Assembly (NCBI GenBank): GCA_015493635.1
Contig: WGCU01000026.1
Span: forward strand, 7,718 to 71,717
Direction: 5' to 3'
Length of the DNA stretch: 64,000 nucleotides
Origin: Spirochaetaceae bacterium
GTDB taxonomy: Bacteria; Spirochaetota; Spirochaetia; B11-G9
The notes beneath the pieces were generated by a model. It was given only the letters and a program-made list of their open reading frames with translations. It had not been told where the DNA came from and ran no database searches. This document shows, piece by piece, positions 6,062-20,478 of this stretch (the stretch's first letter is position 1; the number at the start of each line of letters is the position of its first letter). The position numbers and the translations under genes are program-made.

Positions 6062-7352
6062 AACACGGTTTGTTCTCCTTGTTGTAGGTTCTGTGCTTAT
6101 TCCAAACATTATTATCATGATGATTGTCGGACTCTCTTTCGGCGGGTTTAATAATATCTATGCGCTTCATAAGCAGATGAAAACATACTATACTGTCAAT
6201 AAAATGATCCGCCGTCCGGTAGATAAGAAAGAGTTTTTCACGTATTTACAATCATCTTCTCCTGTAGACTATTACATTATCAGCAGTGACAGGACGTTCC
6301 TTACCTCTTCAACCGGTACCAATGATTTAGCGAATGCACTGCAGAAAGGCAGGACGTTTACAGTACGGGAAGTTGCATTTACCGGTAACAGCAGTGCACT
6401 CCTTTTCCTCCATTTGCCGGCGCTTGAACATTTTGCTCTTGCCAGGCAGACCCCTTTTCAGCTTGTTGCTCCTCTGGTGCTTCTTTCGGTCCTGTCACTC
6501 CTTTCTCTGATTGTAATCCGGTCCATAAACAGCTCCCTTAAAAAGATAGAAGAAGCGACACGAAAGGTTGCAGAAGGGAACTATGACTTTGAACTTCCGG
6601 TACGGGGGAATGATTCCATAGCGTCCCTTTCACGCTCATTCAATATCATGATTGAAAAAGTCAGGGAGGAATACTCCCGCCGGGCACGGTTTTTTATGGG
6701 AGTTTCTCATGATCTTAAAACTCCTCTGGCTTCCATAAGCGGTTACGCGGACGCAATTCTCGAAGGGTATGCGGACAGCAAGGAATCTCTCGATAAGTAC
6801 GCAGGAATAATCAAGGACAAATCCGGACTTCTGCTGGACAGGGTATATCACCTTATTGATTTTGTGAAACTGGAAACTGGAGAGTGGAAGATATCTTTTC
6901 AGGATACTCCTTTAAAGAAGTTCCTCTTGGGAATTATTGATGCTGCTTCGGTTGATGCGGAGCTCTATCACTATACGTTTGAATCGAAAATTTTTATTCC
7001 GGATAGTGTTGTTGTTCCCATGGATACAGGGCTTGTTCGGCGCAGTTTTGATAATATTATTCATAATGCATTCCGGTATGCTGAGGAAGGAACCCGAATA
7101 AAAATTACAGCAGAGGAAGGAAATGGGGGAATTACAATTTCCATAGCAAACCGGGGAAAGGGAATACCGGAAGAAGATCTCCACTATATCTTTGAGCCTT
7201 TTTACCGGGGGTCCTCAACCCGGAATGAGGACGGTTTTGGTCTGGGACTTGCAAATGTTGCTTCTGTTATTAAATCTCACGGCTGGGAAATCTCTGTAAC
7301 TTCAGTACCTGGCGGAATAACTACTTTTACCATTTTCGTTCCGTTATCATAA
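6051..7352 (+). CDS. sensor histidine kinase (TM sensor, HAMP, HisKA, HATPase_c)
   Basis: Two TM segments, HAMP (SLKKIEEATRKVAEGNYDFELP), H-box (FFMGVSHDLKTPLASISGYAD) and G-boxes (GFGLGLANVAS). Overlaps the RR gene by 11 nt. Confidence 0.9.
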   Translation: MSLKTRFVLLVVGSVLIPNIIIMMIVGLSFGGFNNIYALHKQMKTYYTVNKMIRRPVDKKEFFTYLQSSSPVDYYIISSDRTFLTSSTGTNDLANALQKGRTFTVREVAFTGNSSALLFLHLPALEHFALARQTPFQLVAPLVLLSVLSLLSLIVIRSINSSLKKIEEATRKVAEGNYDFELPVRGNDSIASLSRSFNIMIEKVREEYSRRARFFMGVSHDLKTPLASISGYADAILEGYADSKESLDKYAGIIKDKSGLLLDRVYHLIDFVKLETGEWKISFQDTPLKKFLLGIIDAASVDAELYHYTFESKIFIPDSVVVPMDTGLVRRSFDNIIHNAFRYAEEGTRIKITAEEGNGGITISIANRGKGIPEEDLHYIFEPFYRGSSTRNEDGFGLGLANVASVIKSHGWEISVTSVPGGITTFTIFVPLS

Positions 7353-7416: not shown

Positions 7417-8910
7417 TTACGGAACAATCCCGAGTATTACATCGGTGCCCTGCTTATTTACTTTGAAAATAAGTTCGCCGCTGGTGTCAGCGTTAATAAT
7501 TTTATAAAAATCCATAACGCTGTTAATTTTCTTTTTATTTATTTCTTTTATTATATCACCGCTCCGGAGGCCCGCCTTAAAAGCTGATGTATTCTGCTCA
7601 ACGGCGCCGATCATTACCTTTCCAATATTAGAGGGAAGGTTAAGTTTTTTGCGGATATCCTTTGTAATCCCTACCACGGTAACACCAGGCCACAGAGACT
7701 TCGCATTTTTCTGAATTGCTGCTTCATCTTTTCTGGTTGTGATCCGTACTCTCAGGGTTACCGGCCGTTTGTACCGGATAACCTTGAAGGTGTATGTTTT
7801 TCCGGGAACCAGATTTCCAACCACATGAAGCAGTTCATTGGCATCTTTTATATTGGTTGTATCAACAGCTGTTATAAAATCGCCCGGTTTTAGACCGCCC
7901 TTCCATGCGGGGGAATCCTTGTATACGTTGAATACAAAAGCTCCCTTTTTGTGTTTTAACCCCATATCGCTGATGATCCCTTCTGAAGGATCGCTCATTG
8001 ATATTCCAAGCCAGCCGTATTGAACCTTTCCGGTAGCGATTAACTGATCGATAACCTTTTTCGCATTATTTATCGGAATGGCAAATCCAAGGCCAATACT
8101 TCCCCCGGACTGGGAAGCGATCCAGGTATTCATACCAATTACTTCCCCTTTGATATTTACAAGGGGTCCTCCGGAGTTTCCGGGGTTTATGGCAGCATCT
8201 GTCTGTATATAATCCGTAAAACTAGTGCCGAGCCGGTCGTTTGCTTTTCTGCCTACTGCGCTTATTATTCCCGAAGTAATGGTGGAGTCAAAACCAAGAG
8301 GGTTTCCTACTGCAAACGTTATATCGCCAGGCTGAACGGTGCTTGAATCACCCAGTACCGCGATAGGTACATTTTCTTTTGTTTCAAACTTTACGAGGGC
8401 AACATCTTTTCTTGGATCTTTTCCGACAAGTTTTGCATCGAAAACTCTTCCATCGTACAGGTGAATGGTTATTTTATCAGCATTACCGGCAACGTGGTTG
8501 TTCGTCAAAACGTACACGGTTTTCCCTGTTTTTTTAACGATGATTCCTGATCCGAGAGCGGCACTTTTAAACTCCTGCATCTTCGGTTTTTGCTGCTGCT
8601 GTTGGTTCGGAGAATTGAAGAAAAAATCAAAAGGGGAAGGCATAACAGGGACTGCCCTTTTGACTACTGTTTCAACGTTGATCGTTACAACGACAGGAAG
8701 AACCTTTTTTGCGATCATCCTGTTTTCATTCTGCATGGCTTGCAATGTATTCCCCTGGGAAACATTGTAGCCCTGGTATCTGTAGGGGGTTGTTTCAGCG
8801 GTAACGATACCAGCTGTTCCGATTAATAAAAATGTAATAAGAATAAGCAATGTGAATTTCTTTGTTTTCATTTTTCGCCTCCATGTGCTTTTGTTATATG
8901 AATAATACAC
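7417..8910 (-). CDS. htrA: periplasmic serine endoprotease DegP/HtrA (trypsin domain + 2 PDZ)
   Basis: Catalytic triad context: TNNHVAGNADKITIH, ...DVALVKF..., GNSGGPLVNIKGEVIGMN. Two PDZ-like C-terminal segments. Strong RBS GGAGGCGAAAAATG. Confidence 0.9.
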   Translation of the reverse strand: MYYSYNKSTWRRKMKTKKFTLLILITFLLIGTAGIVTAETTPYRYQGYNVSQGNTLQAMQNENRMIAKKVLPVVVTINVETVVKRAVPVMPSPFDFFFNSPNQQQQQKPKMQEFKSAALGSGIIVKKTGKTVYVLTNNHVAGNADKITIHLYDGRVFDAKLVGKDPRKDVALVKFETKENVPIAVLGDSSTVQPGDITFAVGNPLGFDSTITSGIISAVGRKANDRLGTSFTDYIQTDAAINPGNSGGPLVNIKGEVIGMNTWIASQSGGSIGLGFAIPINNAKKVIDQLIATGKVQYGWLGISMSDPSEGIISDMGLKHKKGAFVFNVYKDSPAWKGGLKPGDFITAVDTTNIKDANELLHVVGNLVPGKTYTFKVIRYKRPVTLRVRITTRKDEAAIQKNAKSLWPGVTVVGITKDIRKKLNLPSNIGKVMIGAVEQNTSAFKAGLRSGDIIKEINKKKINSVMDFYKIINADTSGELIFKVNKQGTDVILGIVP

Positions 8911-8940
8911 AAAGAAGCTTTCTGAAACCTTTCCGAACCA

Positions 8941-10407
8941 TTACAGTTTTGTAATGATTTTATTCTCGGCAAGAGGGAATGAAAGAGAAAAAACAGTACC
9001 GCTTCCTTTTCGGGAAGTAACCGCTACCGTTCCCCCGTGTGCGGAAACAACAGCTTTTACAAGGCTTAAACCGAGCCCCATCCCCGGAATTTCTTTTTTG
9101 GAAGGACTCCGGTACAATCTGTCCCAGATAAAGGGGATCTCCTCTTCATCAATCCCCGGCCCGTAATCAGTAACTGATATACTGCAGTTTTCTGCTGTTT
9201 CCTGGACAGCAACCGTTATTTTGCTGTTTCCGTCAGAATACTTGACTGCGTTGTCCAGAATATTCCCGACAGCCTGCCTGAAGCGGACAGGGTCAGCAGG
9301 AATGGAGATGGTTTCATCATCACAGAGGAGTTGTATCTGCAGGCCCTTTTCTTCACCTATATACGTGTATATATCAATGAGATCTGTGAGAACTTTTTTT
9401 ACCTCGATATTCTGCAGGTTCAGATGCAGTATCCCCGATTCCGCTTCCGATATATCCATCATGGTATTAAGCATGGACAGGATTCTCTCCGATTCTTCTA
9501 ACGATGATGAAAGAGCCTCTGTAAGTCTCTTGTTATTATCCGGATCCTGAAGCGCTAGTTCAGCAAGACCTCTCATCCGTGTCATAGGTGTTCTCAGGTC
9601 ATGCGCCACGGAATCAAAGGTTCCTTTCATCTGGTGTATAAGACTTTCAATTCGTGTAAGCATGGTATTGAAGAGCATGATGATTTCATCAAGATCGTCT
9701 CTTCCTTTTTGCCGGTCAACCCGTTTTGAAAAATCTCCTGTTTCCACTATATTTTTCAGTATTGAACTGAGATTATGCAGAGGTTTTAATGCTCTTCCAC
9801 TGAAAAAAGCCCCTGATATAATGCTGAATGTCACAAGAAGGATGAGGAGAAGGATGAAATTTCTCTGATATATATTTAAAAAGTACAACCGCCTTGCGGT
9901 ACTCATGCCTATTTGCAGTATGTATTTATCGGAAAGTCTGACGGTGCTTATTTCAAGTTTGAACGCATTCGTTTTACTGGAAAGGATGATCTCCTGTGAA
10001 AAATCTGAGAGTGGCAGTTGTGCCAGCTGCTCAATATTAAAATTCTTCCAGTTTTCCGGGTATTTTAGAAAGAGTGTTTTGTTTTTACTGTCTGCTATAC
10101 GGATGAAAAAGGCTCTGTCCCCGTAGAGAAAAGAGTCTACCTTAATTTCTTTTGCAATTGCGTCAATGCCCCCAGATTGAAAAACAGCCCAGTAGTTTAA
10201 AAGTCGCCTTCTCATGTTTCCCGTGTCTTCCGCTTTCATGGATGAGTAGAGGGATAAAAATGAGAATGTAAAGAGGACAAGGGAAGAAATGATAAATATA
10301 ACTGAAAAGAGGAACGTCAGTCTGAAATGAATTTTTTTAAAGTTTAAACTAATCTTCTTTAAGAACATACCCGACTCCCCGGATAGTATGGAGAAGCTTT
10401 TTATCAA
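8941..10407 (-). CDS. sensor histidine kinase (2 TM, HAMP, HisKA, HATPase_c)
   Basis: H-box SVAHDLRTPMTRMRGLAE. ATPase motifs NILDNAVKYS, DYGPGI, GMGLGLSLVKAVV. Overlaps the upstream RR by 59 nt. Confidence 0.9.
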   Translation of the reverse strand: MIKSFSILSGESGMFLKKISLNFKKIHFRLTFLFSVIFIISSLVLFTFSFLSLYSSMKAEDTGNMRRRLLNYWAVFQSGGIDAIAKEIKVDSFLYGDRAFFIRIADSKNKTLFLKYPENWKNFNIEQLAQLPLSDFSQEIILSSKTNAFKLEISTVRLSDKYILQIGMSTARRLYFLNIYQRNFILLLILLVTFSIISGAFFSGRALKPLHNLSSILKNIVETGDFSKRVDRQKGRDDLDEIIMLFNTMLTRIESLIHQMKGTFDSVAHDLRTPMTRMRGLAELALQDPDNNKRLTEALSSSLEESERILSMLNTMMDISEAESGILHLNLQNIEVKKVLTDLIDIYTYIGEEKGLQIQLLCDDETISIPADPVRFRQAVGNILDNAVKYSDGNSKITVAVQETAENCSISVTDYGPGIDEEEIPFIWDRLYRSPSKKEIPGMGLGLSLVKAVVSAHGGTVAVTSRKGSGTVFSLSFPLAENKIITKL

Positions 10408-13889: not shown

Positions 13890-15512
13890 TTAATTTTCTG
13901 TAAGCCTTGATACCGAATTGAACATCTCTTTTGTATATGCTGCCGAGTCTTTTACAAGTGAATGAACGAGGTCAGTGGAATCCGCTATACTGTCTGCATC
14001 GGTAGATATTTCTCCGGATACACCTTTGATAATTTTAATAAAATCAGACACTTTGAGTAATTTTTCTTTTGCGTTTTTCTGATCCGCCGTTATTTTGCCG
14101 GATCCCTCTCTGATACTTATTGAGCTGTCCTGAAGCACCTGCATGGACTTCATTATTTCCTGACCTCCTTCAGAAAGTTCTGCTGTGGAACCTGTTATCT
14201 CCGAGAACGCTTCGGACACAAGTTTTATTTCGGTAACGAGTTGTTCAAAGATTTTATTTATTTTTTCGGTATGGGATTTCGACATATCCATACTTCCAAT
14301 AAGGTTTTTCAAACTGTCGGCAATAATTCGTGAGTTTTCAGCTGTTGATCCCGCCAGCTTACGTATCTCATCCGCTACCACAGCAAAACCTTTTCCTCGT
14401 TCACCCGCATGTGCTGCTTCAATGGCAGCATTCATGGAAAGCAGGTTGGTTCTGTCCGCAATATCCGAGACAATCTTGTTTATATCAAGCAGGGCATGAG
14501 CATCATTTGCAGAAACCTCAACAGCTGAATTTGTCTCCTTCATTGCAGTTTTTCCCTCTTCTGCAATATTCAGAAGTGCATTGGTAGTATCTCTCTTGGC
14601 AGAAGTAATTTTGGCAACATTATCCAGCGAAGCTGACATCTGATTTACTGCAGCAGTGGATTCTTGAACAACAGTATTCTGCTCTTCTACCTGCAGATCA
14701 AAGTTTTCCACCTCGTTTGTTGTATTATCAACATAGGAAAGAGCTTCTTTCATATTGACAGAAAGGTTTTCCGCGTTTGTTGTAAAATGTTTCAGATGCT
14801 CCTTTATGGAGGAGCTTCCTTCAAGTATGTGTATAAAGTTATCTTCTACCGATTGGTTGGACGTTGCAGATAACTCGGCTGTTTTTACAACGTTCTGGAT
14901 TCTCTTTATGGTTTCTTCACTTTCATGTTGGGTTTTTTCCATGAACTCCATTGATCGACGGACATTTTTTGCAATATGAATTGAGAATAGAGTAAGCAGG
15001 GTATACAGTACTCCTGCAACAATCAGCCGTTCAGGTATACGGTTTATATCATCAGATTTTAGGATGGGGACTAGTTTGGTAAAAAAAGCTGCAGGAATCA
15101 CTACTGCTCCAATTGCAGCGGATACAATGGTAAACCATTCCGAATCGCTTACTACCAGTGAGAGTATAATCGGGAGGCTCATGTACAGTGTCAGCTGATA
15201 AATTTGATAAACAGAGACGGGGCTGATGATGAATGATAATCCTATAAGTGCGAGCTGTGAAAAAGCAAGGGGCATGACACTTGCGAATCTGTAGAAACCT
15301 TTAAAAAGCGCAATCATGGAAGCAACCATGGCTAACAAGATCGTAAACTCAACAATGACTGTTACCATGTCGCCGTCAATAATTTTTTGTACAATTATAA
15401 TAGGTGTTGTACTCAAAATAACTGTTATGACAAAAAATACCCCTGATACCTTATTTTTGATAACAATTCCGGAATCTTTATAGATTTCCTGTAGTTTTTT
15501 ATTTATATACAT
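13890..15512 (-). CDS. methyl-accepting chemotaxis protein (multi-TM sensor + MCP signalling domain)
   Basis: Highly conserved MCP signalling hairpin [31 protein letters not shown]. About 6 N-terminal TM helices. Start uncertain (15512 or 15557). Confidence 0.85.
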
Positions 15513-15597
15513 AATGTAAGTGTAATATCTATTTGCATATATAGCAATATCTCTCAAGTGCCTACCCTGAATTAGCTATGAAAGGAATAGAAAGTTC

Positions 15598-15626
15598 TTG
15601 ACTTTTGCACATAAGTGCATTATATT
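15598..15626 (+). promoter_or_regulatory. sigma70-like promoter TTGACT-N17-TATATT with embedded 14-bp palindrome TGCACATAAGTGCA (candidate operator)
   Basis: -35 at 15598-15603 and -10 at 15621-15626. A perfect 5-4-5 inverted repeat at 15606-15619 lies in the spacer. RBS AAGGATGG sits 5 nt before the DUF134 ATG (15652). Confidence 0.45.
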
Positions 15627-15651
15627 GATCTTGAAATTATAAGGATGGATT

Positions 15652-16107
15652 ATGCCGAGGCCTAAAAAAGAACGGCTGGTCAGAAGGCCGCCGCTGTATA
15701 CAGAGTTTAAACCCGCAGGGGTTATGCGAAATTCCCTGAAGCAGGTTGTTTTGGAACTTGATGAGCTGGAAGCGATACGGCTTGCAGATTATCTGGGGAT
15801 GGATCACTCTGAGGCAGCGGAAGAGATGGAGATCTCCCGTTCAACGTTTACACGGCTGGTAGAAAAGGCACGGAAGAAGATTGCCGTGTTTCTTGTTGAA
15901 GGATTGAACCTCTCCATAGAGGGAGGGAATATCCACTTCAGGGGTAATGTGATCCAGTGTCTAGATTGTGGGCATATGTTCAATACCGGGTTTGATGTAA
16001 ATATCACAAAGTGTCCGGCCTGCGGTTCTGAACGTTTGGTTGATCTTGCCGGAGGTTTTGGACATGGAGCATGCTGCCGGGGGCATAATCATCGAGGCAG
16101 GAGGTAA
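15652..16107 (+). CDS. DUF134/UPF0251 family predicted DNA-binding protein with C-terminal zinc-ribbon extension
   Basis: MPRPKKERLVRRPPLYTEFKPAG...LELDELEAIRLADYLGMDHSEAAEEMEISRSTFTRLVEKARKKIAVFLVEG is the canonical DUF134 (sigma-70 region-4-like HTH). An extra C-terminus follows: CLDCGHMF...CPACGSE plus a His/Cys/Arg-rich tail GHGACCRGHNHRGRR. Confidence 0.8.
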   Translation: MPRPKKERLVRRPPLYTEFKPAGVMRNSLKQVVLELDELEAIRLADYLGMDHSEAAEEMEISRSTFTRLVEKARKKIAVFLVEGLNLSIEGGNIHFRGNVIQCLDCGHMFNTGFDVNITKCPACGSERLVDLAGGFGHGACCRGHNHRGRR

Positions 16108-16110
16108 AAA

Positions 16111-16440
16111 ATGCCAAGAGGAGACAGAACTGGACCTAATGGAATGGGCCCGCGGACAGGAAGAGGCGCCGGGTTTTGCAACGGTTATAACAGACCGGGA
16201 TATATGAACGGCGGTGCCGGAACAGGATTTGGTTACGGTAGAGGTATGGGACGCGGCTATGGCCGCGGCATGGGGTACGGATACGCGCCTGTTGGCGGTT
16301 ATACTGCACCCTATGGAGTATCCTATACTCCCTACAGTAAGGAAACAGAGAAAGGCTACCTGGAAAATGAGATCAGTATTTTAAAAGAACAGCTTAAGGC
16401 TTCAGAAGCACGGCTTGCTGATCTTGGAGACGAAGAGTAG
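16111..16440 (+). CDS. DUF5320 family glycine/tyrosine/arginine-rich small protein with C-terminal coiled coil
   Basis: N-terminal MPRGDRTGPNGMGPRTGRGAGFC matches the DUF5320 signature. A G/Y/R low-complexity segment follows (GYGRGMGRGYGRGMGYGY), then an amphipathic helix LENEISILKEQLKASEARLADL. Confidence 0.7.
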   Translation: MPRGDRTGPNGMGPRTGRGAGFCNGYNRPGYMNGGAGTGFGYGRGMGRGYGRGMGYGYAPVGGYTAPYGVSYTPYSKETEKGYLENEISILKEQLKASEARLADLGDEE

Positions 16441-16491
16441 ACTCTACACGGGGCGGAAGAGTTTCCGCCCGTGTTATAATAGGAGGTACAT

Positions 16492-16722
16492 ATGCCTGGA
16501 AACGGTATGGGTAATGGAACAGGAAGAGGCCAGGGGCTTGGCAGAAGCGGCAGCGGCCGCGGTAGAAACGGCGGCGGCGGGTTCGGTTCCGGCGGGTACT
16601 GTGTGTGTGCTCACTGCGGAGCAAAAGTGCCGCATGCCAGAGGGACAAAATGCACAGATCTGCGGTGCCCTGAGTGCGGGAAGCCTATGGTTCGGGAAGA
16701 ATTGCTGAACAAGAAAAAATAA
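16492..16722 (+). CDS. glycine-rich small protein with C-terminal Cys/His zinc-ribbon (DUF5320-related N-terminus)
   Basis: MPGNGMGNGTGRGQGLGRSGSGRGRNGGGGFGSGGY followed by CVCAHCGAKVPH...CTDLRCPECGKPM. RBS AGGAGG sits 6 nt upstream. Confidence 0.6.
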   Translation: MPGNGMGNGTGRGQGLGRSGSGRGRNGGGGFGSGGYCVCAHCGAKVPHARGTKCTDLRCPECGKPMVREELLNKKK

Positions 16723-16732
16723 AGGAAGCACC

Positions 16733-17599
16733 ATGAAGATAGCAATTGCCAGCGGGAAAGGCGGAACGGGGAAAACAACCCTCTCTACCAATCTCGCTGC
16801 TTTTTTAGCGGAGAAAGAACATGTTGTTCTTACCGATCTGGATGTGGAAGAGCCGAACTCCGGACTCTTTATTAAAGGGACCCTGAAACATTCTGAATCA
16901 AAATACAAGATGATACCTGAATGGGACTCCGCTTACTGTAATCTCTGCGGGATATGTCAGGAGGTATGCAATTTTAACGCTGTTTTAAAAATGGGGAAAA
17001 ACATTATGGTTTTTCCCGAATTATGCCATGGCTGTTATGCATGTTCTGAGCTCTGTCCAAAAAATTCTCTTCCCATGAAAGAAAAGCCTATGGGGGAATT
17101 AAAACATTTTGAAGCTGCCGGTCTTTCTTTTATTGAGAGCAAGCTTCTTATAGGAGAGGAACAGGCTGTTCCTTTGATAAAGCAGACGATAGATTATGTG
17201 GATGAAAATTTTCCGGAAGAAATCATAAAAATATACGACTCTCCTCCGGGAACATCTTGTCCTGTTATTGAAGCAACAAAACATGCTGATATTGTTATTC
17301 TTATCACTGAACCGACTCCTTTCGGGTTTCACGATCTTACATTGGCCGTTGAAACGATCAGGGAGCTGAAAAAAGAATTTGTTGTTGTTGTAAACAGGTA
17401 TGGAATCGGAGATGACAGTGTGGAAAAATATTGTAAAGCGGAAGGGATTACCATTATCGGAAAAATACCAAATGACCGGAAAGTAGCGGAAGTTTATGCA
17501 AAAGGTGATCTTCTTTATCCGGCTCTGCCGTCTGTAAAAAAAGTTATAGAAAAAATCGCGCTTTTTATTCAGGGAGAACGGGGAGACTCAGGACGATGA
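16733..17599 (+). CDS. MinD/Mrp-superfamily P-loop ATPase with inserted 2x[4Fe-4S] ferredoxin domain (COG1149-type)
   Basis: Deviant Walker A IASGKGGTGKTT. Two ferredoxin motifs: CNLCGICQEVC and CHGCYACSELCP. ParA/MinD-like C-terminal half. Confidence 0.85.
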   Translation: MKIAIASGKGGTGKTTLSTNLAAFLAEKEHVVLTDLDVEEPNSGLFIKGTLKHSESKYKMIPEWDSAYCNLCGICQEVCNFNAVLKMGKNIMVFPELCHGCYACSELCPKNSLPMKEKPMGELKHFEAAGLSFIESKLLIGEEQAVPLIKQTIDYVDENFPEEIIKIYDSPPGTSCPVIEATKHADIVILITEPTPFGFHDLTLAVETIRELKKEFVVVVNRYGIGDDSVEKYCKAEGITIIGKIPNDRKVAEVYAKGDLLYPALPSVKKVIEKIALFIQGERGDSGR

Positions 17600-18465
17600 A
17601 AGAGATTGTTGTTATTTCAGGGAAAGGCGGAACAGGAAAAACATCCATAACAGCTTCTTTTGCCGTTTTGGGAGGGGCAAATCTTCTTGTAGCGGACTGT
17701 GATGTCGATGCTGCTGATATGCACCTGCTTCTGGAACCGGATTTTGCCGGAGATGAAGATTTTTACAGCGGAGAGGTTGCCGAAATTGATCAGGAAACAT
17801 GTATTCAGTGCGGGAAGTGTGCCGAAGTATGCAGGTTTGATGCAATCCCTGTTGTAGATGGCAAGTATACTGTTGATCCTCTATCCTGTGAGGGATGCGG
17901 ATACTGTGCAAGAATATGTCCGGTAAAGGCGATTACAAACTCGGTTCAGAGAGTAGGTAATCTGTATACCTCATCAATCCGTACCGGGACAAAAATGATT
18001 CACGCAAAATTGGGAATTGGAAACGAAAATTCCGGTAAGCTGGTTGCAAAGGTAAAAAATGACGCGAAAGCTCTCGCTGAAAAAGAACAGAAGAATTATA
18101 TTCTTGTTGACGGTTCTCCGGGAGTTGGGTGCCCTGTTGTTTCTTCTCTTTCCGGTGCAACATTTGTTGTTCTTGTAACGGAACCGACTGTTTCCGGTGT
18201 TCATGATTTAATAAGGGTTTATGAACTGGTAAAAAAGTTTAAAATAAACGCCGGCTGCATTATAAATAAGGCGGATATCAATCCGGAAAGAAACAGGGAA
18301 ATAAAAGACTTTATAAGGAAGGAATCTATTACACTTCTTGCGGAGATTCCATATAATGAAAATTTCACAAAAGCGATGACCATGGGAAAGACAATTGTAG
18401 AGTTTGATAGTATATTGAAGAAAATAATTGTGGATTCCTGGGAAAAAATAAAACAAAAAGCTTAA
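17596..18465 (+). CDS. MinD/Mrp-superfamily P-loop ATPase with inserted 2x[4Fe-4S] ferredoxin domain (second paralog)
   Basis: ISGKGGTGKTS Walker A. Ferredoxin motifs CIQCGKCAEVC and CEGCGYCARICP. The ATG overlaps the upstream stop by 4 nt (ATGA). Confidence 0.85.
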   Translation: MKEIVVISGKGGTGKTSITASFAVLGGANLLVADCDVDAADMHLLLEPDFAGDEDFYSGEVAEIDQETCIQCGKCAEVCRFDAIPVVDGKYTVDPLSCEGCGYCARICPVKAITNSVQRVGNLYTSSIRTGTKMIHAKLGIGNENSGKLVAKVKNDAKALAEKEQKNYILVDGSPGVGCPVVSSLSGATFVVLVTEPTVSGVHDLIRVYELVKKFKINAGCIINKADINPERNREIKDFIRKESITLLAEIPYNENFTKAMTMGKTIVEFDSILKKIIVDSWEKIKQKA

Positions 18466-18480
18466 ACAAGCGGAGGGAAC

Positions 18481-18813
18481 ATGAAAATTATATTTACAGC
18501 AAAAGGGACGGAGTGGGATTCCCCTATGGATCCGAGATTCGGCCGTACGGAATATTTTTTCATCTATGATGAGGATTCCAAAAAAATTGAAACGTACGAC
18601 AATCGAGCTATTGAAAATGAAGCGCATGGAGCAGGGCCGAAAACATCTCAAAAACTCGCTGAATATGGAGCGGATATTTTAATTACCGGTAACGGACCTG
18701 GAGGAAATGCAGCAGCAGTTTTACAGCAGGTGGGAATAAAAGTTATTACCGGTGCGGGTGATATGACCGTTAAAGAGGCGTATGAAGCTTTTAAAAATGG
18801 AACATTGAGCTGA
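18481..18813 (+). CDS. NifX/NifB-like dinitrogenase FeMo-cofactor-binding family protein (PF02579-like)
   Basis: MKIIFTAKG...PRFGRTEYFFIYDEDSKKIETYDNRAIENEAHGAGPKTSQKLAEYGADILITGNGPGGNAAAVLQQVGIKVITGA matches the Nitro_FeMo-Co fold pattern (hFGr..yf.iyd......e.i.n....hg.G...a..L...g.dv.itg.iG..A...L...GI.V). Confidence 0.8.
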   Translation: MKIIFTAKGTEWDSPMDPRFGRTEYFFIYDEDSKKIETYDNRAIENEAHGAGPKTSQKLAEYGADILITGNGPGGNAAAVLQQVGIKVITGAGDMTVKEAYEAFKNGTLS

Positions 18814-18814
18814 T

Positions 18815-19207
18815 ATGAAGTCCCTTATAATTGCTGCAGCGACCGATGATGGAGAAAACTTTATTAGTAGGCATTTTGGAGACGCGGGATATTATAATCT
18901 TTACCGGCTTACTCCGGAGAAAGCTGAATTTATAAAAAAGATCACCAATGTATCAGAGAAAGAACGGATGCATGCGGATCCTGGTAAAGCACAGGGTATC
19001 ACCGAAATACTGAGAAAAGAAAAGGTTCAGGTTGCTGCTTCAAAAGTGTTTGGGCCTAATATTAAACGGATAAAGAAAAAGTTTGTTTGTGTTCTTACAA
19101 ATGCAAATTCTATTAACGAAATACTCATCATTCTGCAAAAACAGTTCTCCCGGCTCACTCAGGAATGGGAAGCAGGAGAGGTAAGAGAAGTCATCAGACT
19201 GCAGTGA
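18815..19207 (+). CDS. NifX/NifB-like (Nitro_FeMo-Co family) protein, second divergent paralog
   Basis: IIAAATDDGENFISRHFGDAGYYNLYRL...HADPGKAQGITEILRKEKVQVAASKVFGPNIKRI retains the family pattern. Starts 2 nt after the previous gene. Confidence 0.65.
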   Translation: MKSLIIAAATDDGENFISRHFGDAGYYNLYRLTPEKAEFIKKITNVSEKERMHADPGKAQGITEILRKEKVQVAASKVFGPNIKRIKKKFVCVLTNANSINEILIILQKQFSRLTQEWEAGEVREVIRLQ

Positions 19208-19213
19208 GGATGT

Positions 19214-19414
19214 ATGAAACAGACTGAATGTAAATGGTTTCCTGTCTGTCCCATGAAGTATTTCTTTGAGAGAGGGATGGTTGCTGAAAAGTACATCCTC
19301 GCTTACTGCAAAGGAGATAACAAATCCTGTGTACGTTATCAGAAAGAGGAAGCGGGGATATATCATCCGGATAATATGCTACCGGACGGAACAATTGATA
19401 AAAGTTTAGTTTAA
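19214..19414 (+). CDS. small cysteine-rich protein (C-x5-C ... C-x6-C), hypothetical metal-binding
   Basis: 66 aa, MKQTECKWFPVCPMKYFFERGMVAEKYILAYCKGDNKSCVRY..., last gene of the operon. No family recognised from sequence alone. Confidence 0.45.
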   Translation: MKQTECKWFPVCPMKYFFERGMVAEKYILAYCKGDNKSCVRYQKEEAGIYHPDNMLPDGTIDKSLV

Positions 19415-19611
19415 TAATTTCTTCGTATGCAGTAAGAATATGATTGACGGATATTACCATTATATATATGATTAAATAATGGATTTTAATGGGGATGCAC
19501 ACGCAGGGAAATGGCACCGGCAGGTATCTCTTCTTGCTAAAGTCATTAAAGGTGGGCATGTGAGCAGGGAAAGCATCTGCTATTATGAAGATGGTTCATC
19601 GTAAGAGATTT

Positions 19612-20478
19612 CTATCCGCTTTTTATAAGAATAATTGCAATAAGAGATAAGGAGACTGCAGCTATTCTTAAAAGTGTTAATTTTTCTTTATAGATGATGG
19701 CTGAAAGAAAAATAGGAATGAGAATTGAAAGGGCAAAAATGGGCTGAACAAGTGCCATACTGCCTGCGGCGAATGCTTTCAGGACAAAAATATATCCAAA
19801 AAAATTAAGAACTCCTATGGATCCCCCAATAATAAAGATTTTTGGAGTTTTGAAAGTCTTTTTGCGCTGTTCCGGAGGTATCCGTGTTTTGTAAAGGAGG
19901 AATGAGATACCGGTAACTATTGAGTAAGAGATAAAAATATAGATAATTTTATCCGTTTTTGTCGATGCCAATTTACCTGCTGTCATGGAGAAAGATGTGC
20001 AAACCGCAGCAAGAAGGGCAAATCCGATGCCTGCCAAGGGTGTTTTGTTTATACCCTTTACGTGCTCCATGGACAGAAGGATCAGCACAAAAACCGAAAG
20101 TGCTGCTCCTGCCCATTGTTCCGGAGCCGGGGTTTCACGGAAGAATACCACTCCGATAATAATAACAATAACGACATTTGATTTATTTACCGGGAATACA
20201 ACAGCCGCAGGTGCACGTTTTAAGGCGTTGAATTTTGAAAGAGCTCCAAGGGCAAAAAATGTGCCGTTAAACAGTGCAAAGGGCAGGGCAGAGACAAAGA
20301 GTGATAGATTGTGGTGATCCAGAATAAGCACGGTGAGAGAGCAGAGAACAACGGAAAATGCAGATATAAGGACTACTCCCTGGGTAACAAGTTTATATTC
20401 CGCGGCAATTTTATATAGAAAATTAAGCGATCCGTAAAAAAGTGTTGCGGTGATGCTGTATATAAACCATAACGGCAC
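19612..20478 (-). CDS. DMT-superfamily (EamA-like) membrane transporter
   Basis: 288 aa, 10 predicted TM helices in two repeated halves. Hydrophobic throughout, with an EamA-like pattern. Confidence 0.75.
   Translation of the reverse strand: MPLWFIYSITATLFYGSLNFLYKIAAEYKLVTQGVVLISAFSVVLCSLTVLILDHHNLSLFVSALPFALFNGTFFALGALSKFNALKRAPAAVVFPVNKSNVVIVIIIGVVFFRETPAPEQWAGAALSVFVLILLSMEHVKGINKTPLAGIGFALLAAVCTSFSMTAGKLASTKTDKIIYIFISYSIVTGISFLLYKTRIPPEQRKKTFKTPKIFIIGGSIGVLNFFGYIFVLKAFAAGSMALVQPIFALSILIPIFLSAIIYKEKLTLLRIAAVSLSLIAIILIKSG

Follow-up and report, generated by a model that had tools for sequence, protein, structure and literature searches.

The question raised by this locus is what two adjacent small proteins, both rich in glycine, arginine and tyrosine, do in a Spirochaetaceae bacterium. 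They are encoded at positions 16,111 to 16,722 of a 64,000-nucleotide stretch of contig WGCU01000026.1, referred to below as the window, and are named ORF1 and ORF2 after their open reading frames. A preliminary description likened both to eukaryotic RGG/FUS-type prion-like regions and proposed scaffolding, condensate formation or RNA binding as their function. The analysis presented here points to a different setting. ORF1 is an ordinary member of the catalogued Pfam family DUF5320, which has no assigned function, and ORF2 is the founder of a definable small-protein family that neither Pfam nor NCBIfam contains. The reading favoured here, by analogy with the archaeal protein IssA, is that both may serve as accessory subunits of an anaerobe-specific ORP/IssA-type metal–sulfur system, acting as IssA-like tails supplied in trans. 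In such a system, ORF1 and ORF2 would be the small subunits accompanying MinD-like ATPases with ferredoxin motifs (MinD-Fer) and NifX-like cluster carriers. This reading is held tentatively and falls somewhat short of being probable. Its observed basis consists of family membership, conservation, the disorder-plus-helix and Cys-domain architectures, gene neighbourhoods and natural fusions.

The two genes and their composition

Both genes lie where the preliminary description placed them, and in each an AGGAGG Shine–Dalgarno sequence precedes the ATG by 7–8 nucleotides (nt). Their parts are as follows.

16111..16440, + strand: ORF1, 109 amino acids, starting 3 nt past the stop codon of a DUF134 gene
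16111..16203, + strand: ORF1 residues 1–31, conserved DUF5320 N-terminal motif (N-motif), from an alignment of 35 diverse homologues
16204..16335, + strand: ORF1 residues 32–75, variable-length cationic Gly/Arg/Tyr tract, predicted to be disordered (predicted local distance difference test score, pLDDT, below 50); GC content 0.575
16336..16440, + strand: ORF1 residues 76–109 and stop codon, acidic amphipathic helix with leucine-zipper-like spacing in the AlphaFold2 model; conserved pattern E..YLENE..LK..L...E.RL
16492..16722, + strand: ORF2, 76 amino acids, with a Gly/Arg part (residues 1–36) and a Cys domain (residues 37–76)
16492..16599, + strand: ORF2 residues 1–36, degenerate DUF5320-type N-terminus, then a Gly/Arg tract ending in GRGRNGGGGFGSGGY
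16600..16722, + strand: ORF2 residues 37–76 and stop codon, Cys6His domain with a VREELL tail

The closest genome locus, L012, comes from a Sediminispirochaeta metagenome-assembled genome and has a gene order identical to that of the window operon. In the comparison with this locus, 69 codons of ORF1 are identical, 30 differ synonymously and 6 non-synonymously, while the corresponding figures for ORF2 are 39, 26 and 11. Because synonymous changes outnumber non-synonymous ones, the comparison indicates that ORF1 and ORF2 are translated genes under purifying selection, with tracts that are polymorphic in length. The same excess, together with the conservation of both frames across phyla, rules out a chance reading frame or an antisense artefact. 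Precursors of ribosomally synthesised and post-translationally modified peptides were also considered and ruled out, as no recurring modifying enzyme was found in the neighbourhoods examined.

Several compositional features reported previously hold on closer inspection. The shared N-terminal string is real, with ORF1 residues 10–21 (NGMGPRTGRGAG) and ORF2 residues 4–15 (NGMGNGTGRGQG) identical at 9 of 12 positions. The Gly/Arg/Tyr-rich tracts are equally evident: residues 1–70 of ORF1 contain 36% Gly, 11% Arg and 11% Tyr (net charge +7), and residues 1–36 of ORF2 contain 50% Gly and 11% Arg (net charge +4). The 36-residue segment richest in these three amino acids reaches a combined fraction of 0.69 in ORF1 and 0.64 in ORF2, against a highest value of 0.47 among the window's 37 long ORFs. 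The RGG label, on the other hand, has to be given up, since neither protein contains a single RGG triplet. The motifs present are GRG (four in ORF1, two in ORF2) and GYG or YG, and the RG dipeptides (five and three, respectively) occur mostly as GRG. The FUS-type or prion-like label fares no better, as a Ser/Gln-rich composition is absent and the first 30 residues of ORF1 form a strictly conserved motif rather than a low-complexity sequence. The DNA underlying the tracts is GC-rich as described (0.575–0.65, compared with about 0.40 nearby) but barely repetitive, with a lone tandem repeat of 12 nt in 1.9 copies at 16252–16273. The eukaryote-like label should be dropped for both proteins, and the DUF5320 family is prokaryotic, with members in Bacteria and in Archaea.

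ORF1 and the DUF5320 family

ORF1 matches the DUF5320 profile (PF17253) over its full length, with E = 3.5e-29 and 102.3 bits against a 27-bit cut-off, residues 1–105 aligning to profile positions 1–99. The notion that such proteins are uncommon in bacteria is not borne out. Searches with two different queries returned 1,329 and 2,526 clusters at 90% identity, and the family, with more than 2,500 such clusters, occurs in many anaerobic bacterial and archaeal phyla. The loci sampled belong to Spirochaetota, Cloacimonadota, Bacillota, Chloroflexota, Desulfobacterota, Atribacterota, Omnitrophota, Acidobacteriota, Thermoplasmatales, Methanosarcinales, Woesearchaeota, Asgard archaea and others, lineages that we take to be anaerobes. 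Asgard genes were observed in L055 (5974–6351; Promethearchaeum syntrophicum MK-D1), L056 and L080; in the complete MK-D1 genome, the DUF5320 gene has no NifX-like or MinD-Fer neighbour within its 12-kb locus.

Members of the family begin with the N-motif MPxGDxxGPxGxGPxTGRxxGxCxGxxxPGY, in which Cys23 is the lone invariant cysteine. Thirteen columns are invariant among the 35 diverse homologues (M1, P2, G4, D5, G8, P9, G13, G17, R18, G21, C23, P29 and G30), and all of them are present in ORF1; of 223 members, 200 have the motif beginning at residue 2. The tract that follows was retained in all 223 homologues whose modules could be delimited, out of 241 examined, so that the condition named as refuting in the preliminary description, homologues without the tract, does not refute it. 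The tract varies in length, as was to be checked according to that description, both between close relatives (two in-frame insertions or deletions separate ORF1 from its L012 counterpart) and family-wide, with 33–71 residues, a median of 47 and a net charge of +2 to +9. Its composition is 30% Gly, 13% Arg, 0.6% Lys (14% cationic in total), 20% Tyr+Phe+Trp, 9% Pro and 2.3% Asp+Glu. The C-terminal helix of about 35 residues is rich in Glu (22%), Lys (15%) and Leu (13%). Both the tract and the helix of ORF1 fall inside these family ranges.

An AlphaFold2 model of ORF1 based on the family alignment contains a lone helix at residues 77–106 (pLDDT 83–89), whereas residues 1–72 score below 50. The coiled-coil ending proposed earlier is thus supported as far as an amphipathic helix is concerned; pairing as a coiled coil may be inferred from it, and the helix is a probable oligomerisation element. 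Searching PDB with either family, by sequence and by profile, yielded nothing beyond spurious or compositional hits.

The modules of DUF5320 are shuffled among paralogues, some of which have the N-motif and tract without the helix and others the tract and helix without the N-motif. Such paralogues may form arrays of two to five genes, as in L030 (3104–4786, up to five), L035 (3579–6396) and L053 (5663–6351). The shuffled arrays also hold forms reduced to the N-motif and forms with Trp-rich tracts, for instance GFGWGRGFGWWRWGYPY.

ORF2 and its Cys6His family

No Pfam or NCBIfam match was obtained for ORF2. Its ligand signature is C37-x-C39-x2-C42-x5-H48-x5-C54-x4-C59-x2-C62, and all seven of these residues, together with R68 and E69 of the REELL tail, are invariant in the 36 close homologues of a first search. 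The cysteine pattern of the zinc ribbon noticed previously is therefore as described, but the invariant His48 had been overlooked. An exhaustive profile search recovered 1,659 representative proteins at E ≤ 0.001, of which 199 reach E ≤ 1e-10. Among 194 instances of the domain in the best 150 proteins, the spacer between the knuckles is 16 residues long in 188, and all three extra ligands (the Cys at −2, the His and the middle Cys) are present in 168. Because the spacer and the three extra ligands are conserved across these instances, the domain is read from its sequence as a zinc ribbon (C39/C42/C59/C62) plus a second, three-ligand Cys/His/Cys site.

Two invariant CxxC knuckles (C39-x2-C42 and C59-x2-C62), as expected of a zinc ribbon, are accompanied by sub-threshold Pfam zinc-ribbon matches in most members of the family. 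AlphaFold2 predicts a small three-stranded beta domain at residues 34–70 (pLDDT 78–80), preceded by residues 1–30 with pLDDT below 50. The top Foldseek matches of the domain are rubredoxin, desulforedoxin and RNA polymerase subunit P modules, all at E ≥ 0.3 and none significant, and its PDB profile matches are spurious C2H2 hits.

The N-terminal part of ORF2 provides a connection with ORF1. ORF2 itself does not match the DUF5320 hidden Markov model, and only 2 of 34 homologues match it, through their N-termini. A clear DUF5320 N-motif, degenerate in ORF2, starts some members of the family, namely P0022, P0034, P0174 and the proteins of L036 and L048. The Gly/Arg part varies in length among homologues, and in P0175 a His-rich HGHCH tract stands in its place. 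The ORF2 family may be viewed as a sister of DUF5320 in which the helix would have been swapped for a Cys6His metal-binding ribbon.

Gene neighbourhoods

For the analysis of context, 80 genome loci were fetched by the DUF5320 motif alone, 46 of which are well flanked (2 kb or more upstream, 3 kb or more downstream). Of these 46 loci, 39 have a NifX-like gene within 3 kb of the DUF5320 gene and 40 a MinD-Fer gene within 5 kb, while an ORF2-type gene within 5 kb and a DUF134 gene were each found in 19. As its immediate downstream neighbour, DUF5320 has a NifX-like gene in 25 of 78 loci and a MinD-Fer gene in 9 of 78. ORF2-type genes are usually located between DUF134 and NifX-like genes (L003, L004, L007, L008), and among the 11 contig look-up loci a DUF134 gene directly precedes a DUF5320 or ORF2-like gene in 7. 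Neither the window operon, nor the 93 related loci, nor the fusions described below contain RNA-binding domains or RNA-metabolism genes.

In loci that lack DUF134, DUF5320 is immediately preceded by a gene for a PadR protein (two loci) or for a Fur-family protein (seven):

L022, 5492–5995: Fur-family gene
L046, 5396–5938: Fur-family gene
L074, 5464–5931: Fur-family gene
L077, 1910–2353: Fur-family gene
L078, 4438–4884: Fur-family gene
L087, 5471–5944: Fur-family gene
L091, 520–993: Fur-family gene

Several of these Fur proteins have an unusual basic and aromatic N-terminal extension before the Fur domain, such as PWWHGRFRGCGYR. In L092, from the Desulfovibrionales member Desulfothermus okinawensis, an OrpR-like PAS-sigma54 activator is encoded upstream, and a NifX-like gene, two MinD-Fer genes and another NifX-like gene follow past DUF5320. 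A 192-amino-acid ORF without a Pfam family (6397–6975) lies between this activator and the DUF5320 gene. In Oceanispirochaeta crateris (L009), the ferrous iron transport genes feoA and feoB (8142–10348) were observed within about 0.5 kb past the equivalent DUF134-DUF5320-MinD-Fer-NifX cluster.

Natural fusions

Additional information comes from proteins in which the modules of ORF1 or ORF2 are joined to other domains. In three Anaerolineae loci (L058, L066 and L071), one chain combines a Nitro_FeMo-Co domain, a (GMGR)n tract and a DUF5320-type helix, and Pfam recognises both domains. In L058 and L071 the DUF5320 profile is matched at positions 31–99, that is, over tract and helix without the N-motif, at 37 bits against the 27-bit cut-off. 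The Cys domain of ORF2 is fused to NifX-like domains (L088, L090), to DUF134 (L086), to a cation-efflux transporter (L068) and to a 2×[4Fe-4S] ferredoxin (L032). Every fusion partner of the DUF5320 tract or helix, or of the Cys domain, is a metal or metal-cluster protein, and none is RNA-binding.

The C-terminal cytoplasmic extensions of cation-efflux (CDF) transporters carry a Cys6His domain in L068 (458–1510) and a NifX-like domain in L042 (6787–8046), which suggests that both modules are metal-handling or sensing add-ons of such transporters. Giant fusions are represented by P0157 and P0158 (988–1,430 residues), in which a membrane anchor and two PDZ domains are combined with NifX-like domains (one to three) and Cys6His domains (4–5). 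P0157, with five copies of the latter, is encoded at 8175–12467 of L093, inside a magnetosome gene cluster that also specifies MamI, a LemA/MamQ-like protein, two cation-efflux proteins, trypsin-like proteases and a MreB/MamK-like actin. Long Pro/Gln/Gly repeats were also seen in P0157 and P0158.

Resemblance to IssA and the proposed role

IssA (PF2025) of Pyrococcus furiosus consists of a NifX-like IPR003731 domain bearing a 70-residue tail, which is predicted to be unstructured, holds the only cysteine of the protein and contains 7 cationic and 14 aromatic residues, 15 Gly and 11 Pro (PMC5524996). The tail has been proposed to wrap anionic thioferrate (FeS2-)n electrostatically, with the aromatic residues stabilising the assembly, and IssA forms Fe/S-loaded nanoparticles (PMC5524996). 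An X-ray absorption signature of linear FeS2- chains has been reported for IssA, which is induced by sulfur or sulfide at sufficient iron. Uncharacterised mesophilic relatives, called "IssX", have Gly-rich tails (PMC5524996). Set against the published composition figures for IssA, the DUF5320 tract is closely similar in composition, Arg on the DUF5320 side far exceeding Lys and Asp/Glu being almost absent. ORF1 and ORF2 likewise have a predicted unstructured, cationic, aromatic and Gly-rich tail of the high-pI kind, judged by charge and by pLDDT below 50. Moreover, the fusions of a NifX-like domain, tract and DUF5320 helix reproduce the architecture of IssA.

The differences are equally clear. 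In the window, the NifX-like domain resides on separate proteins (18481–18813 and 18815–19207), and because it is not in the same chain, neither ORF1 nor ORF2 qualifies as IssA; the claim is that they may work like its tail, not that either is IssA. The tail here is preceded by a strictly conserved N-motif and followed by a helix in ORF1 or a Cys6His domain in ORF2, neither of which is described in the IssA paper (PMC5524996). Furthermore, the window organism is probably a mesophilic spirochaete, in contrast to the hyperthermophile Pyrococcus.

In the proposed scheme, tails would be supplied in trans, because the composition of the tract approximates that of the IssA tail and tail-less NifX-like genes adjoin and are sometimes fused. 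The Arg-rich, aromatic, Gly-rich and acid-free tract would bind anionic iron-sulfide or other metal-sulfide species carried on tail-less NifX-like proteins, both electrostatically and through aromatic stacking. The conserved N-motif would dock the protein to its partner and be dispensable once a covalent fusion holds the tract in place, as L058 and L071 illustrate. Oligomerisation of the assembly would fall to the ORF1 helix, and the Cys6His domain of ORF2 would bind metal directly, with one structural Zn(Cys)4 site and one Cys/His/Cys site. The inferred parts of this scheme are what the tract binds, that the N-motif docks, how the proteins oligomerise and which metal is involved. In favour of the scheme, the window's first NifX-like protein, which belongs to the ORP/MTH1175 type, is itself tail-less, the upstream regulators are of metal or redox types (Fur in seven loci, OrpR-like in L092, DUF134 elsewhere), and P0175 replaces the Gly/Arg tract with a His-rich one.

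Several observations weigh against the tails-in-trans reading. The resemblance to IssA is one of composition figures and not of directly compared sequences, the tail model is a proposal in the source paper itself (PMC5524996), and tails that bind polyanions and tails that bind RNA cannot be told apart by composition alone. The five-protein ORP complex of D. vulgaris (Orp3, 4, 5, 8 and 9) has no DUF5320-type or Cys-domain subunit (PMC6345978). Three of the 46 well-flanked DUF5320 loci have neither a NifX-like nor a MinD-Fer neighbour. The fusions of NifX-like domain, tract and helix have no N-motif and are found together with stand-alone DUF5320 genes, which they therefore do not simply replace. 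Comparison of the ORF1 and ORF2 family alignments by hhalign gave a probability of 14.7%, which is not significant, and homology of the two whole proteins is accordingly not claimed. The roles suggested for DUF5320 and ORF2-type proteins rest on comparative inference entirely.

The window operon and its relation to ORP clusters

ORF1 and ORF2 are part of a seven- or eight-gene operon on the + strand, in which the DUF134 gene comes first. Its other features are listed below.

15598..15626, + strand: promoter-like site TTGACT-17-TATATT, from a consensus scan only; 10 of 12 matches, weak, since the region has no more sites of this kind than expected from shuffled sequence
15652..16107, + strand: DUF134 putative helix-turn-helix (HTH) regulator gene; Pfam PF02001, E 4.2e-23, with matches to a sigma-70 region-4-like HTH
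16446..16474, + strand: GC-rich RNA hairpin in the ORF1–ORF2 spacer; 71-nt fold of −25.7 kcal/mol, z −3.25
16733..17599, + strand: MinD/CbiA P-loop ATPase, copy 1, with an inserted 2×[4Fe-4S] ferredoxin motif (Orp3/Orp4-like); Pfam CbiA E 8.7e-20, ParA, Fer4
17596..18465, + strand: MinD/CbiA ATPase, copy 2, 2×[4Fe-4S]; Fer4 E 8.2e-15, CbiA E 2.8e-13; start overlaps the stop of copy 1
18481..18813, + strand: NifX-like carrier (Nitro_FeMo-Co, IPR003731) of the ORP/TM1290/MTH1175 type, tail-less; Pfam PF02579, E 5.5e-20
18815..19207, + strand: second, divergent NifX-like protein; PF02579 E 8.7e-07, 29.6 bits against a cut-off of 26.3
19214..19414, + strand: Cys-rich ORF of 66 amino acids, CKWFPVCPMK...C...C.RY...HPD.M.PDG, at the operon end; membership in the system uncertain

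The ATPases flanking the two small genes are MinD-Fer proteins as previously described, with MinD/CbiA domains and two 4Fe-4S motifs. Sequence matches in PDB for the 18481–18813 protein are 1RDU (E 9.4e-16), 2WFB (ORP, E 3e-15) and 1EO1 (MTH1175, E 2e-10), and a sequence search for the protein at 18815–19207 found no PDB relative. The ORF at 19214–19414 has no Pfam or NCBIfam match; conserved homologues occur within 2 to 3 kb of the equivalent cluster genes, downstream in L012 and L014 and upstream in L064. The DUF134 protein has a C-terminal extension (residues 99–151; 15946–16107) in which a CxxC...CxxC zinc ribbon precedes a tail of Gly, His, Cys and Arg, GGFGHGACCRGHNHRGRR. This tail recalls the tracts of ORF1 and ORF2 and the His-rich N-terminus of P0175.

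The spacer hairpin has equivalents 3' of the DUF5320 stop codon in the related spirochaete-type loci L012 (about 6340–6375), L013 (about 1110–1140) and L014 (about 6320–6350), and comparison among these loci reveals both-sided base changes in 7 of the 10 pairs of the hairpin. From its position between the DUF5320 stop codon and the ribosome-binding site of the next gene, it could be a partial terminator or an mRNA stabiliser that sets how much DUF134 and DUF5320 is made relative to the genes downstream. An Rfam scan of 15300–19700 at E ≤ 1 returned nothing, so that no metal or cofactor riboswitch points to a ligand. Neither ORF1 nor ORF2 was linked to defence systems by PADLOC or to phages by PHROGs.

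The Desulfovibrio ORP complex includes Orp3 and Orp4, MinD-like ATPases with ferredoxin motifs, and the NifX-like proteins Orp5 and Orp8 (PMC6345978). The window resembles it in having paired MinD-like ATPases with 2×[4Fe-4S] motifs and a single-domain NifX-like protein of the ORP type (Orp8). In L092, DUF5320 lies between the OrpR-like activator and the NifX / MinD-Fer ×2 / NifX genes. The window operon differs in having a DUF134 regulator instead of OrpR/sigma54 and in lacking the Mrp/NBP35-NifX fusion Orp9, matches to MrpORP being partial and far below the cut-off. By its gene content, it is therefore classed as an ORP-type cluster without Orp9 and OrpR.

A more distant likeness concerns biomineralisation. 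Mutants of Desulfovibrio magneticus RS-1 in FmpB, a PDZ-NifX magnetosome protein, make fewer magnetite particles (PMC4287615), and P0157 resembles FmpB/MamP-like proteins in its PDZ and NifX-like domains and its magnetosome cluster, to which it adds five ORF2-type Cys domains. The domain described in FmpB is a magnetochrome (CXXCH haem) domain and not Cys6His, and the window contains no magnetosome genes, so the link is one of a shared domain only.

Sulfur globule proteins (PF17228) offer another comparison, as Gly/Tyr-repeat structural proteins that coat an inorganic sulfur deposit. They are exported proteins. A role for ORF1 as a secreted structural or sulfur-globule protein was rejected, with a weak, compositional PF17228 match of E 0.0099 and 17.1 bits against a cut-off of 26.7, which does not support homology, and no signal-peptide-like N-terminus in sight.

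Alternative explanations

The proximity of MinD-Fer genes invites an explanation in which DUF5320 proteins are MinE/ParB/McdB-like partners or adaptors of these ATPases, with the conserved basic N-terminal peptide stimulating or recruiting the ATPase, the coiled coil multimerising and the protein linking cargo to it. Partners of ParA/MinD proteins are typically small proteins with basic N-terminal peptides. The disorder-plus-helix architecture of ORF1 fits this pattern, the N-terminal 30 residues, including the invariant Arg18, are far more conserved than the rest, and MinD-Fer genes occur within 5 kb in 40 of 46 loci and directly downstream in 9 of 78. Moreover, some loci, for example L020 (Neomoorella), consist of DUF5320 followed by MinD-Fer genes only, and in the ORP system an amphipathic helix of the MinD kind is reported at the C-termini of Orp3 and Orp4, together with a polar location of MrpORP (PMC6345978). 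The fusions tell otherwise: among those examined, neither DUF5320 nor the Cys domain is joined to a MinD-Fer ATPase, whereas several are joined to NifX-like domains, and ORF2-type genes adjoin NifX-like genes without a MinD-Fer gene in L005, L007 and L008. A partner role of this kind is considered unlikely, and it is compatible with the tails-in-trans reading, as an adaptor could bind both cargo and ATPase. The regulator genes at the heads of these operons suggest another possibility, namely that ORF1 and ORF2 are metal- or redox-sensing co-regulators. They would bind the DNA-binding protein encoded upstream (DUF134 in the window, Fur or PadR at other loci) and modulate it as their cysteines take up metal or clusters. 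A regulator gene is directly upstream in many loci, DUF134 itself in 7 of the 11 look-up loci; L011 contains DUF134 and then DUF5320 paralogues only, with no NifX or MinD genes, a fusion of DUF134 with the Cys domain exists (L086), and the window DUF134 bears its own zinc ribbon and GGFGHGACCRGHNHRGRR tail. A regulator at the operon head is, however, a default arrangement that implies no physical partnership. The regulator family varies (DUF134, Fur, PadR or a sigma54 activator, with DUF134 in 19 of 46 loci), while the association with NifX and MinD-Fer is constant, and the Cys domain is also found on transporter, ferredoxin and PDZ-NifX proteins, which are not regulators. Taken together, these points make the co-regulator role rather improbable.

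The function proposed originally, in which ORF1 and ORF2 are RGG/FUS-like domains that bind RNA or G-quadruplexes or drive protein–RNA condensates, is very improbable. It draws on the Gly/Arg/Tyr-rich composition, the predicted disorder and the variable length that both proteins share with eukaryotic RGG/FUS domains, and on a motif scan in which Methanosarcina mazei DUF5320 and DUF134 proteins displayed an RG-rich candidate G-quadruplex-binding motif (PMC7565180); that match is to a composition-driven motif and comes without an experiment. IssA-type assemblies are themselves protein–mineral nanoparticles and so compatible with condensation. Unlike the eukaryotic domains, ORF1 and ORF2 have no RGG triplets, no Ser/Gln-rich segment, and no RNA recognition motif or other RNA-binding domain. 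Their context is one of metal–sulfur proteins: the neighbourhoods examined hold no RNA-binding domain or RNA-metabolism gene, all fusions are to metal-related domains, and no Rfam match was obtained in or around the operon. The suggestion that the composition would fit the function of the operon is thus upheld for scaffolding, which is plausible, and left without contextual support for RNA binding, the neighbours and fusions being metal or metal–sulfur proteins. The eukaryote-like, RNA-binding reading largely gives way to a metal–sulfur one, with scaffolding kept as a plausible role. In the literature, no paper was found that ties DUF5320 to IssA, ORP or metal–sulfur chemistry, and nothing functional was found on DUF134/UPF0251.

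Implications

Strict anaerobes have to store and move iron and sulfur without the oxygen-dependent chemistry of ferritin, and how they do so is an open question. IssA is, to our knowledge, the only characterised iron-sulfide storage protein and has been thought to be narrowly distributed, and we know of no clear function assigned to the ORP cluster since 2011. A bolder extension of the tails-in-trans reading, which is regarded as doubtful, would make DUF5320 and ORF2-type proteins the missing "tail" subunits of a split, IssA-like system for storing iron sulfide (thioferrate-type) or scaffolding biominerals. This system would be widespread among anaerobes of both Bacteria and Archaea, Asgard archaea among them, and some magnetosome clusters would have put it to new use. 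Its disordered tails would condense on metal-sulfide polyanions as eukaryotic RGG domains do on RNA, and MinD-ferredoxin ATPases would assemble or position the particles.

Should the tails-in-trans reading prove wrong, the annotation would remain, with ORF1 an ordinary DUF5320 member and ORF2 the founder of a new small-protein family. If it is right, several thousand uncharacterised small proteins, comprising DUF5320 and the uncatalogued Cys6His family, would gain a testable function, and the ORP-type clusters of many phyla would become readable as machines for metal-sulfide handling or storage. It would also provide a prokaryotic example of a disordered low-complexity region built for an inorganic polyanion. 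The fusions and the neighbourhood statistics already name the partners with which such a function may be tested.

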